A DNA stretch of 17,503 bases. Origin: a virus. Taxonomy: Duplodnaviria > Heunggongvirae > Uroviricota > Caudoviricetes. This document shows positions 6,001 through 12,000 of the stretch, one piece after another. Position numbers: made by a program. Location of the stretch: IMG/VR virus record IMGVR_UViG_2740892231_000009. One strand, written 5' to 3'. Positions within the stretch are counted from its first letter, which is position 1. The number at the start of each line of letters is the position of its first letter.

Positions 6001-9000
6001 AGCTGATAAATATAAAAATGTTGTTCCTCATGGTAAAAAATCACGTCGTCAGTGCAGCAATGATGAAGGGCGAATTATTGACATTAGTATCCTTATGTTA
6101 GAAAGATATAAGCAACAAGAATATGAGTTAATTGTTGCTCATTTCGTGATTGGTTTATCTCTTCGTGCTATTGCAAAGCAACAAGGATGTTCAGATGGAA
6201 CAATTCGTAAAAGATTGCAAAAAGCCTTAGGTTTTTTGACTGGATATATAGCAATTACCAGTTAAGAGTCAGCGGTTTTTTTACCAGTGTAATGGTATAA
6301 GGATACTCCCATGTGTCTTACATGATATGGAAGCGCTGTTGCTGGATGCTTTGTGATACTCTTAAAGCGGAGGGGAGAGCCTTCCGCTTCAATTTCTGCG
6401 TCCGAAACGGTCGTAGAGAAAAATTCTTTCCATTCATTGAATTTTACTGCTGATTTGTCAGACTTTATATAAATTAGAATTCCTCCATGATCGTCACGTG
6501 ACGTACCCGTGCCGTAACGTTCGGTTAGCTGAATCCAGCCATTATGAATAGATTTGGGGCCTCTCCATAATTTTGCTTCACCGATCCATTCGAATTTTCC
6601 GAATTGATGTTTAACTAATAAATCAACGTGACCGCCATGTTGAGTATCATGTTCAACATCATAAAACCTACCTTTCAGGAAATTTTTGATCGACGCTGTT
6701 AGCTCGTCCTCTCCCCACTTAGCATCTTGATAGAAGTGTTTGTCATTTTCTAAATTCTGAATAGCGTCGTCTAAATCTTCATAGAGTTGCTTTACAAAAA
6801 TATTTTTGTCTGCAGCTAATTTTCTTTGAACCATTCCCCTAAATTCAGGATCCATTCTAATTAATGATTGAAGGTCTGCAGTACAGATGTTTACATCACT
6901 CATGCAGACTCTCCAAAAGACTCGAAGGAGTAAAGTATGGATAAAGATACTGGCTAAAATTATCAACCAATTCGCCAGTTTCTGGATGGTAAAAACTTCC
7001 TGTGTCTAAAGCATAGGAAATAAGATCATCTTCAACTGGTATTGGTTCTTCCGTTAAATTATCAATGTATTGAAAATGCATATCCAATAGATGTGCTTTA
7101 TAGCTAGATAAATAATCAGTTGCTTTTATTAGCAGGATATAGTCATCTTTCGTATCAGTTAGATAGGTTAAACCATTGATAAGGGTTTTGTATGTAAAGT
7201 GATTGATATTTTTAGCATCTTTACTAACCAGAAAAAGAAAAAGATCACGACACACACTGCGAACAGGATCATTAAAATCCTGCTCTATTTGCGTGATAAT
7301 GTCGTGATATATACTCTTTTTCATTTATGGCCTGATGATCTCGCTCTTCTTTTCTCTTCACAGGACTTAACAGAATCCAATATTTTTCAACAATAAATAT
7401 AATCGAATCAATGTTGTTACAGTTCTTCGCAATTGCTTCATGCAACCTAATTCTAGGATTATCAAGCATTGTCCTTTTTCCTGGTAATATTAACTCTACT
7501 GATAAAATATGTGAAGAACTTTGTGGTAAATCCCAAATTTTTCCCAACTTAAACTTTGTCAATATTGGGCTTGCGGACTCTCCACTATGATGGTAAACAT
7601 CTTGACGCAAACACTTTTGACTTGGTTTGAGTTTTAAAGAACTTGTATTGCCATCTGAGGTGATAAAAGATACATGAGAAATTCTGCCATCTACTTTTTC
7701 GTAAAGATCTTGTATTGAACCAAATAATTCAAGAGGATTGTTTAAAATAACGCCAGCTTCTTTTTTTATAAATTTAGCCACAAGGTATTGTTGAGGCTGT
7801 GATTCACTTCTTGGAAGGATAGATAAATCAATCGTAAGAATTAATATTTTTTCTGCAGGCATTAGCATGATGGTATTAAAGCATTGCGTGACTTGGCGTG
7901 TTTTGCATTTTATTTCTCCACCATTAGCACGTAATTCCATACCCGCATCGCTAAGATGTGTTGGGTCAAGCTCTATCACTTCAGTGTAATACGCTTTGGA
8001 TAAAAAAACAGCAGTGTCAATTTGTTTATCACGAATGATATCTTGACGTAGTTCAGCAAAATGCAGCTCAGTATCAGCAACTAACAGCTCCTCTCTGGAT
8101 AAAGGAGTTGGGTATTTTTCTGAGAAGGGGCTATTGTCCTTTTTCTGATTTGTGAAAATTGTTTGTAATTTTGCTACGTCTTCATCGGTGATTCTATAAA
8201 TAGAAAGTAATCGATTCCCGCTAAAAATTAAACCTTTCCAGAAATCGTCGATTCTGTCTTTTAGGTCGGGATTATGCTGAACTACACTATTTACACGTTC
8301 AATAAAAAGGGGTAATCCTTGGGCCGTTACACCCAGTGATGAACCAAGAAGCTTACGGGTGTTGCGCCAGCCAAAGCGTGAATTGATGTTTTTTACTGTT
8401 TGCTCAAGCATTAACACTTCCTTAACTTTCCCTTAACAATTTAGGGTGCTAAACTTTTTTGCGCAGTTTACATAAAAAAATAGTGCGTACGCAAAAACTA
8501 TCTAACATGATGAGCTTTAACCGGGAAATTTGTATATGTTGTGAGCATAAAGTTGGCTGAGAAATCTAAAACGGGTAGAATGACTGCGGGTGCTTGAGGC
8601 TATCTGTCTCAGGCATGAACACCAAAAGGCAGATAGAGAAAAGCCCCAGTTAACATTACGCGTCCGGCAAGACGCTTAACATTAATCTGAGGCCATATCT
8701 ATGCTCTACACACGTAGGTTAGCCTCTTACGTGCCGAAAGGCAAGGAGAAGCAGGCTATGAAGCAGCAAAAGGCGATGCTAATCGCCCTGATCGTCATCT
8801 GTTTAACCGTCATAGTGACGGCACTGGTAACGAGGAAAGACCTCTGCGAGGTACGAATCCGAACCGGCCAGACGGAGGTCGCTGTCTTCACAGCTTACGA
8901 ACCTGAGGAGTAAGAGACCAGGCGGGGGAGAATCCCATAAGCGCTAACTTAAGGGTTGAACCATCTGAAGAATGCGACGCCTCGGTGCCTCGTTAAGACG

Positions 9001-12000
9001 ATGCCTCGCGTTCTTCAATTGCGTTTTGTAGGCTGTCAGGGATACTGTCCCACGAATGGCCACTGTAAGCTCCAGATGACCATTTTTGTTATTCTCCACA
9101 ACGAGTTAGTTCTTCTTTTCGGATCCGGCACTTCTGGGGGGGAAATCCAGCGATGGCTGGATTATGTCGTCAATTAAAAATGCGGCGAGTAGATTAGCAA
9201 ATATCCACGCTTTCGCGAGTTCAGGTTCCTTTGCACGCAAAGCATCCAGGTGCAGCAAACTTTTGAGCCGCTTAAAAGCCAGTTCAATTTGCCATCGCAG
9301 ACGGTAACAATCAGCCACTTGCTCTGCTGAATATTCATCTTCCGGTAATGATGTTAGCAATAGCACATGGCCCGCTGCTTCCAGCGTTTCCGCCTGAACT
9401 ACTCGTCCTTTTCGACGATTCTCGCTGAGCAGTCGGGTTTTACTGATTAATGCTTTTTCGGGAGGAAGTGATACGGCAATGAGACGTGCCGGAAAGGGAG
9501 CTCCGGCTTTTTTATTACCTGAATTGCCTATCATTACAGTGGTTTCACCGTTCTTACCGCAATCCAGCCCGCGCAGAAAACCCATCATGTCAAAGCGCAT
9601 TCCTTCTGCAGTTAACCAGCGCAATCCTCGCCAGTGAACCCGGACGATATAATCAGCTTCTCCAAAAGCAAGTGAGCGGATACATTCGGGACGCGAACCG
9701 AATCCCCGGTCAGCAATGCGTATCTCGTCTGCCGTTTGCGCAAATCGGTCCAGCCGTTCAGCGTCTCTGCTGTCGGTTAGCTCAAAATCAGTGAACTGAC
9801 AGGTATGAGGATCATATCCCATATGTAGTCGCCATTCAGCGCTGCCGCCCCCGGGCGCACTGATTGCTGTTCCATCGACAAGACGCAATCTCTTTCCGCT
9901 TGTACAACCCGTAACTGCGGCGCGTACAGCAAGTGTTTGTGCGGCAAGTATGCCAAACCAGTCGGCGGCATTCCGCAGCCGCTTCAGGAGAGCCACGTCA
10001 GATAATGTTGCAACGTCATGGAGCTGAGCCCATGCAGTGACTTCACGTAATGACATCCCCCCGGGGCCGTAAGCCAGCCCCAGACGTAGCAGAGTTGCAG
10101 CATCACGAATTTCGCGGCGGCGGGTTAGAGCCCCGGCATTACGTGCCGAAGTATCCAGTTCTTCGGGCTTACCAATATGGGCCAGAATTGCTGACCAGTT
10201 ATCGTGAGAGTAATTCATCGGCACGTTAAATCATATCAGGCGTAATACCACAACCCTTAAGTTAGCGCTTATGGGGAGAATCCCTCGCCACCTCTGATGT
10301 GTCAGGCATCCTCAACGCACCCGCACTTAACCCGCTTCGGCGGGTTTTGTTTTTTCCTAGCATTCTGGTTTACAATTCGCACACCAGCCTGAACAACTGG
10401 CACCTGCTGCGCCAGCAGAGACAACCGATGGCGCACGATACCAAATTACACAATTCTGATAATTCAGCCGTCTTTGCCAGCAGGCGCGGACGGTGTTTTC
10501 ACGCATTCAAATCTGACTGGTACCAGCATCCCCCATGCACTGAAGAACAGGCCGAATGGCTCATTCAGTGTTACCGCAGGCGCGGATACGAGGTTAAAAA
10601 AGCCCTTAGCCTCGACTACCGTCACTGGATAATCTCCGTCAGGCTTCCTTACTCTGAACGCCCACCGCGTCCGTCCCGCACATTCCAGCAACGCATCTGG
10701 AGGTAACGTGCGGGTATTACTTCGACCTGTTCTGGTACCGGAACTCGGGCTGGTGATCGTTAAGCCGGGCCGTGAATCCATGCCGGTATTCCACAATACC
10801 CGGGTACTGGTGGAGCCGGAACCGAAAAGCATGCGTAATCTGCCGTCCGGGGTCGTTCCTGCCGTTCGCCAGCCGCTGGCGGAGGATAAATCATTACTGC
10901 CATTTTTCAGCGACGAACGAGTGATTCGTGCTGCTGGTGGCGCTGGCGCATTGTCTGACTGGTTACTGCGCCATGTTAAATCCTGCCAGTGGCCACACGG
11001 CGATTATCACCACAGTGAAACCGTCATTCACCGTTATGGTACCGGCGCAATGGTGTTGTGCTGGCACTGCGACAACCAGTTGCGTGACCAGACCTCCGAA
11101 TCACTTGAGCAACTTGCTCACCAAAACCTGTCAGCATGGATGATTGACGTCATTCGTCACGCAATGAATGGCACACAGGAGCGTGAATTATCGCTGGCCG
11201 AATTATCCTGGTGGGCGGCCTGCAATCAGGTGGTGGATGCATTACCTGAGGCAGTAGCGCGTCGTTCGCTGGGATTACCAGCGGAAAAAATCCGCTCCGT
11301 ATACCGTGAGAGTGACATCGTACCGGGAGAACAGACAGCCATCAGCATACNNNNNNNNNNCAGTCTGGATGATTGATGTTATACGTCACGCAATAAACGG
11401 TACGCAGGAGAGGGAGTTATCGCTGGCCGAATTATCCTGGTGGGCGGCCTGCAATCAGGTGGTGGATGCACTACCTGAGGCAGTAGCGCGTCGTTCGCTG
11501 GGATTACCGGTGGAAAAAATCCGCTCCGTATACCGTGAGAGTGACATCGTACCGGGAGAACAGACAGCCATCAGCATACTGAAGCAGCGCACAAAAAATA
11601 TTGCGCTGCCACTTCACGTCCACCAGCAACAAAATCCACCACAGAAAAAAACGGTTGTCAGTATCGCTGTTGATCCGGAGTCTCCTGAATCGTTCATGAA
11701 GCGGCCTAAACGTCGCCGTTGGGTTAATGAGAAATACACGCGCTGGGTAAAGACACAGCCGTGTGCGTGTTGTGGTAAGCCTGCTGACGATCCGCATCAC
11801 CTGATTGGTCATGGTCAGGGGGGAATGGGGACAAAGGCCCACGATATTTTCACGCTACCGTTGTGCCGGGAACATCACAACGAACTTCATGCAGACCCGC
11901 TGGAGTTTGAGAAAAAGTACGGCTCTCAGGTTGAGTTAATTTTTCGTTTTCTTGATCACGCCTTTGCAACCGGCGTGCTTGGGTAAAAGAGGTTACTGAT

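Follow-up and report, generated by a model that had tools for sequence, protein, structure and literature searches.

IS186 at a preferred target separates a prophage hokD-type toxin gene from its fold-back element and terminator and probably disables its stable toxin-mRNA reservoir

The 17,503-nt sequence of the Caudoviricetes virus record IMGVR_UViG_2740892231_000009 (the window, meaning this whole stretch) carries a prophage hok/mok/sok type I toxin-antitoxin cassette in which the insertion sequence (IS) IS186 lies 22 nt past the hok stop codon. The cassette was struck by IS186 at a preferred target of the element, and this has probably disabled the stable toxin-mRNA reservoir. IS186 leaves the promoter, tac, mok, hok and the Sok region unaffected, and shifts the fold-back inhibition (fbi) element and the intrinsic terminator 1348 nt downstream. 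The locus lies in the early-right region of a lambdoid E. coli prophage, upstream of a Q antiterminator gene. An earlier note on this sequence had proposed that the 3' end of the hok mRNA is the fold-back element and that IS186 separates it from the toxin gene; the fold of the reconstructed mRNA bears this out. The elements of the cassette are listed below, with positions in the window (ORF, open reading frame; UTR, untranslated region).

8553-8581, plus strand: candidate hok/mok promoter (TTGGCT, 17-nt spacer, TAGAAT), from a consensus scan
8588-8599, plus strand: tac element at the 5' end of the hok mRNA, GGGUGCUUGAGG, from the minimum-energy fold
8588-8763, plus strand: hok mRNA leader, complementary to Sok (Rfam RF01794 'sok', found with cmscan)
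8633-8709, minus strand: putative Sok antisense RNA, transferred by hand from the annotated K-12 sokC through an alignment
Minus strand: candidate Sok promoter, TTGCCT (reverse complement of 8739-8744), 17-nt spacer, TAACCT (reverse complement of 8716-8721), read by eye and by homology
8701-8913, plus strand: mok ORF of 70 aa, read in the hok frame to a common stop as in K-12 mokC/hokC (ORF list and K-12 annotation)
8758-8913, plus strand: hok ORF, 51 aa, equal to K-12 HokD (RelF); Pfam HOK_GEF PF01848, E=1.2e-23
8921-8935, plus strand: hok 3'-UTR hairpin, 5' arm, loop and first 3 nt of the 3' arm, GGCGGGGGA-GAA-UCC
10310-10322, plus strand: fbi element, CCUCAACGCACCC, pairing with tac and also kept in the intact ST648 and E2348/69 loci
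10329-10356, plus strand: intrinsic terminator of the original hok transcript, from a terminator scan and kept in intact loci

The toxin ORF, the overlapping mok and the Sok-complementary leader were all found, as in other hok/sok members, and the locus reads as a full hokD-type hok/mok/sok cassette. The hok ORF ends with TAA at 8911-8913, where the earlier note had also placed its end, and is followed by 22 nt (8914-8935) and then by IS186. The protein, MKQQKAMLIALIVICLTVIVTALVTRKDLCEVRIRTGQTEVAVFTAYEPEE, is identical to K-12 HokD. The match to RF01794 extends over the whole model length with 117.1 bits (gathering score 59; E=1.5e-26), and the candidate hok/mok promoter ends 7 nt 5' of the first base of this match (8588). 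The consensus promoter scan called no Sok promoter, and the putative Sok region lies 227 nt from IS186, unaffected by the insertion. In many genomes, similarity to the cassette starts at 8575, where the -10 box of the candidate hok promoter has its edge, so that the -35 region differs from one prophage context to another.

The inserted element and its borders comprise the following features.

8926-8935, no strand: left copy of the target-site duplication, GGGAGAATCC
8936-10273, minus strand: IS186 (IS4 family), 1338 bp, with the transposase antisense to hok; assigned by identity to the K-12 copies and by RefSeq annotation of the same locus
9106-10218, minus strand: IS186 transposase InsL, 370 aa from ATG, intact; DDE_Tnp_1 PF01609, E=1.6e-26
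9488-9517, plus strand (the hok strand): terminator-like hairpin with a T run within IS186, from the consensus scan only
10274-10283, no strand: right copy of the target-site duplication, GGGAGAATCC

The size and inverted repeats, the single DDE ORF and the target duplication at the motif all identify the element as IS186. The inverted repeats (8936-8958 and 10251-10273) are 23 bp long and perfect, the left end being CATAAGCGCTAACTTAAGGGTTG and the right end its reverse complement. Base for base, the element equals K-12 IS186A and IS186B save for one absent C near 9063 (GGCCACTGTAAG in the window vs GGCCACCTGTAAG in IS186A/B), in non-coding sequence past the transposase stop, and the DNA of the transposase gene is identical to K-12 insL1 and insL2. 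The IS186 copy at the same locus of strain 2013C-3181 differs by 1 nt more, and its transposase carries a frameshift in the annotation. The placement of IS186 at 8936-10273 with a 10-bp duplication, 22 bp past the hok stop, was already given in the earlier note and is a valid parse. The longest exact direct repeat at the edges of the element is 12 nt (8925-8936 / 10273-10284), which leaves one base of ambiguity on each side in the IS186 ends and in the length of the duplication.

The junctions could in principle be an assembly artefact, with the multi-copy IS186 misplaced between contigs. The right part of the window is patched together from scaffolded contigs, and the source assembly is below finished quality, which lends this explanation some grounds. 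Against it, IS186 stands between perfect copies of a 10-bp target duplication of the expected kind, no run of N lies within 1 kb of the element, and the block 1-11350 (11,350 nt, free of N) is colinear with a complete genome at 99.96%. The complete genomes 2013C-3181 and N51 carry identical junctions (2.3 kb at 99.9% identity). The artefact, first suspected from the N runs of the window, was rejected on the identical junctions in these two complete genomes and the colinear block, and its probability is close to nil.

To reconstruct the empty site, IS186 and one copy of the duplication were deleted, and the resulting 953-nt query was compared with 5426 complete E. coli genomes, of which 2292 contain 80% or more of it in one piece. 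The ST648 sequence aligned at 99.9% over 778 nt (82% of the query), from the -10 box of the hok promoter onwards, and the ST648 and E2348/69 alignments both contain the exact GAGTAAGAGACCAGGCGGGGGAGAATCCCTCGCCACC, with the duplicated bases present once. Real genomes thus carry a site equal to the reconstruction, in agreement with the empty-site alignment that had been proposed as a check. In these empty-site alleles the promoter, tac, mok, hok, the Sok region, the hairpin, fbi and the terminator are all intact. The terminator stem (10329-10346, followed by TTGTTTTTTC) begins 67 nt past the hok stop in the empty site and its T run ends at 95 nt, close to the distance of about 100 nt estimated beforehand.

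The reconstructed mRNA, in which 8588-8935 is joined to 10284-10353 (418 nt), was then folded. In the minimum-energy fold, tac (8588-8599) pairs with fbi (10310-10322) over 12 bp with one bulged C, and the fold of the entire RNA is better than that of shuffled sequences by 6.8 standard deviations (z = -6.8). Pairing of this 5'-3' type was found in five of six reconstructed loci, namely the window and four other IS186-bearing loci of hokC/hokD type, including K-12 hokC. Since tac pairs with the segment just 5' of the terminator, the region of the terminator is part of the hok transcript and contains fbi; the possibility that the terminator falls outside the hok transcript, which would have undone the original proposal, is answered in the negative. 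When fbi is absent, either trimmed or with the transcript running into the IS, the 5' end of the hok mRNA forms a local hairpin. A single transcript that closes tac on fbi and ends at the intrinsic terminator exists in the empty site and in real intact alleles, and is missing from the window. With fbi and the terminator behind IS186, the window locus is therefore a disrupted member of the hok/sok family. In the R1 model, the tac-fbi closure stabilises the full-length hok mRNA and keeps it from being translated until fbi is slowly trimmed off the 3' end (PMC9841398).

The insertion also breaks the GC-rich, protective 3'-UTR hairpin of the processed hok mRNA, an effect absent from the earlier note. 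In the reconstructed mRNA this hairpin has 9 bp (GGCGGGGGA-GAA-UCCCUCGCC) and the insertion point lies in its apex region; the remainder of the 3' arm (CUCGCC) is now found at 10284-10289. The hairpin recurs in other reconstructed loci. The local minimum free energy at the hairpin is -19.8 kcal/mol in the empty site vs -7.5 kcal/mol with the IS. In processed R1 hok mRNA, the last 3' stem-loop shields the molecule against 3'-5' exonucleases, and weakening it by point mutation abolishes toxicity (PMC9841398).

The target of IS186 has been described as 5'-GGGG(N6/N7)CCCC-3', used in either orientation, with 54 such sites only in K-12, in a mutation-accumulation study in which 7 of 59 IS186 sites strayed 1-2 bases from the motif (PMC5009759). 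The targets at four hok loci are as follows.

K-12 hokC: GGGG-AGTGAT-CCCC
K-12 hokE: GGGG-AGTAAT-CCCC
STEC308: GGGG-AGAAAT-CCCC
The window: GGGG-GAGAAT-CCCT, with one deviation, within the reported range

In sequence, the hok 3'-UTR hairpin and the IS186 target motif are one and the same, with the target at the apex of the hairpin in the window, a point that is not in the earlier note. IS186 is found at the same base after different hok genes and in either orientation because the conserved hairpin behind hok matches the target motif of the element. Strain 2013C-4991 has the same hokD allele with identical flanks and carries IS186 in the opposite orientation with an 11-bp duplication, clearly an insertion independent of that in the window. 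Other IS186-occupied hok loci lie in prophages with different neighbours. In queries spanning the junction, whose counts pool hokD-type and hokC-type loci, the hok-IS186 junction was found in the window orientation in 820 of the 5426 complete genomes and in the opposite orientation in 940, and the intact hok site in 2210. The arrangement of IS186 after hok is thus already known and very common, not rare, and the target specificity of IS186 is the main explanation for its recurrence in E. coli.

Two further observations concern the same junction. In strain SY3626 (locus L008, 2055-3700), IS186 lies downstream of rem and not directly past hokD, and therefore not all IS186 copies in this neighbourhood use the hok hairpin. 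A hok-IS186 junction with 95-96% identity was also found on plasmids of 107 and 112 kb (O111:H8 strain 7-54 11A; LR-64-1).

The frequencies bear on a more far-reaching interpretation, in which the hok hairpin is a maintained landing pad for IS186 and its occupation a selected, population-level silencing of prophage and chromosomal hok genes, or in which read-through from the hok promoter tunes the transposase according to orientation. Such read-through is antisense to the transposase in the window and sense where IS186 lies the other way round, in the 940 genomes. About one sixth of the complete E. coli genomes have the junction in each orientation, which fits a landing pad and pure target bias equally, and we consider the landing-pad interpretation improbable.

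The consequence proposed for the window locus is the following. Reading antisense to the transposase, the hok transcripts would enter IS186 and end inside it, as expected from the R1 model and from K-12 gef, and the terminator-like hairpin at 9488-9517 is a possible new 3' end for such read-through transcripts. They would be unable to form the tac-fbi closure that stabilises and silences the full-length mRNA, and would also be without the 3' stem-loop that guards the processed mRNA against 3'-5' exonucleases. The expected outcome is a short-lived hok mRNA that Sok can still repress, and a stable toxin-mRNA reservoir would not build up. Post-segregational killing upon prophage loss, or killing upon transcription arrest, would be lost or much weakened, and the host would be unharmed. 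In K-12, the gef mRNA of ~644 nt ends within IS186 and is still antisense-regulated, and IS186 is thought to disrupt the gef/hokC fbi (PMC3562002); the passages of PMC7232551 that cite Pedersen and Gerdes 1999 likewise regard the K-12 hok loci as IS-inactivated. Argued from the R1 model and the K-12 gef literature, toxin regulation at the window locus may accordingly be perturbed or lost, as the earlier note had expected.

The opposite outcome, in which IS186 de-represses Hok, was also considered: an mRNA devoid of fbi would be constitutively open, and the locus would be more toxic or a more Sok-dependent addiction module. In the R1 model, the mRNA without fbi does take the translatable conformation (PMC9841398), and in our folds of IS-bearing transcripts tac is left without a 3' partner. 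The open form, however, is also the form that is bound by Sok and destroyed by RNase III (PMC9841398), and the Sok region of the window is intact. Moreover, the protective 3' hairpin is gone, and in R1 the mutations that weaken this hairpin cost toxicity and do not raise it (PMC9841398). Hundreds of healthy genomes have the arrangement. De-repression is accordingly regarded as highly improbable.

Several points weigh against a disabled reservoir as the consequence of the insertion. The target in the window differs from the IS186 motif by one base. The mok and hok ribosome sites have much the same unpaired probabilities in the intact and the IS-bearing folds, so that a translational effect is not seen in the folding, and minimum-energy folds of RNAs of 400-900 nt are unreliable in detail. 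For the window locus we infer transcript ends, stability and translation alike. In addition, IS-free hokA (E. coli C), hokB (K-12) and hokC (ECOR24) have been reported without post-segregational killing (bioRxiv 10.1101/2025.08.07.668861), and with IS-free chromosomal hok loci inactive in killing, the window locus may therefore have had little activity to lose.

This last point leads to the main rival explanation, namely that the insertion is functionally neutral, the hokD-type cassette having already been inert as a killer and IS186 being there only through the motif match. The two orientations are about equally common (820 vs 940), as target bias at a palindromic motif predicts and not selection for one outcome. 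On the other hand, the elements of the empty-site cassette are intact and 97-100% conserved across many prophages, and the mRNA folds far better than shuffled sequences, which suggests maintenance; the Hok peptide is intact as well. A neutral insertion is therefore judged possible and still rather unlikely, and the loss of a stable toxin-mRNA reservoir through IS186 remains the probable reading.

Annotation of the hokD-type cassette should mark it as a type I toxin-antitoxin locus that is interrupted by an IS and probably disabled, rather than as a working locus, and surveys of hok/sok that count Hok ORFs alone will overestimate the number of functional loci. What is added here is the explicit identification of fbi, the correspondence of the target motif to the protective hairpin, and the frequency of both orientations across E. 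coli.

The surroundings of the cassette are as follows. Between a Q-family antiterminator gene (5732-6265) and hok lie three co-oriented ORFs on the minus strand (6262-8417; ~197, 142 and 363-381 aa), which run against the surrounding early operon. The remark that no relBE precedes hok, unlike the arrangement in K-12 Qin, proved correct: these three hypothetical ORFs occupy the upstream region. In the search for relBE or defence genes they gave no Pfam match, and PADLOC returned only a weak PDC-S54 match (E=0.0014), which was disregarded. E2348/69 keeps the three genes beside an intact hok locus, and they could be a moron or a defence-type cassette. The largest of them stops at 7272 (minus strand), 16 codons longer at the C-terminus than the coding sequence of 2013C-3181, which maps to 7320-8411; this gap (7272-7320) could be a point difference or an annotation choice.

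A full-length DicF antisense small RNA is encoded at 644-695 on the minus strand (Rfam RF00039, 75.8 bits), and the matching complete genome has dicB, ydfA, ydfB and ydfC annotated close by, which places the prophage in the Qin/dicBF type. An ORF on the plus strand (13159-13638), downstream of the Q antiterminator gene, occupies the position of a PemK/MazF-family type II toxin in the annotation of that genome, and would be a second toxin gene in the prophage.

Six runs of exactly 10 N occur in the window (11351-11360, 14160-14169, 15973-15982, 16659-16668, 16935-16944 and 17401-17410), and behind each of them the preceding 90-500 nt are repeated at 92-98% identity. The right third of the window is accordingly pieced together from overlapping contigs that diverge slightly from one another and probably represent paralogous regions of lambdoid prophages that were collapsed, and the ORFs of this part, e.g., the methyltransferase pieces, should not be trusted.

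Compared with known systems, the closest counterpart is K-12 hokC (gef)/mokC/sokC with IS186A. The comparison with K-12 is based on our own alignment of the K-12 loci and on secondary citations (PMC3562002, PMC7232551). As in the window, IS186 lies 22 nt past the hok stop in the same orientation, with a 10-bp duplication of the same type (GGAGTGATCC vs GGAGAATCC-type), the same 3'-UTR hairpin split and the same fbi (CUUCAACGCACCC) displaced. The differences are that hokC is a different hok paralogue with a junction ~91% identical, that it lies in the core chromosome beside dnaJ and not in a prophage, and that its target is the perfect GGGG(AGTGAT)CCCC, whereas the window has one deviating flank base. 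In K-12 hokE/sokE with IS186B, the element is also in the homologous hairpin, 21 nt past the stop and with a 10-bp duplication, while its orientation is opposite and the hok sequence is much more divergent. Similar IS copies beside K-12 hok genes had been mentioned in the earlier note, and the resemblance turns out to be closer than stated there, with hokC matching exactly in distance and orientation and hokE within 1 nt in distance.

The gene K-12 hokD (relF) of the cryptic prophage Qin has an identical Hok, the same 3' UTR with fbi, and the same downstream neighbours as the window (a rem-like gene, DUF968/ydfU and Q). It differs in having no IS186 and nothing 5' of the hok Shine-Dalgarno sequence, that is, no tac, mok start or Sok region, with relBE there instead; homology to K-12 hokD begins in the window at the hok Shine-Dalgarno sequence, at ~8744. 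Unlike the truncated K-12 hokD, the window cassette appears complete, which is not in the earlier note either.

The plasmid R1 hok/sok system shares with the window the promoter, tac, mok over hok, the antisense Sok, the 3' hairpin, fbi and the terminator, and the same fold-back logic as judged on the reconstructed mRNA. In contrast to the window, it is plasmid-borne and uninterrupted and its killing has been shown experimentally, whereas the fold-back partner in the window is displaced. A class of IS-interrupted chromosomal hok loci comprising K-12 hokA, hokC and hokE and E. coli B hokX is listed in the passages of PMC7232551 that draw on Pedersen and Gerdes 1999. The window locus shares the defining arrangement of this class, with the IS near but not in the hok ORF and regulatory elements parted by it, at the same site as in K-12 hokC, and is a further instance of the phenomenon already described for K-12.

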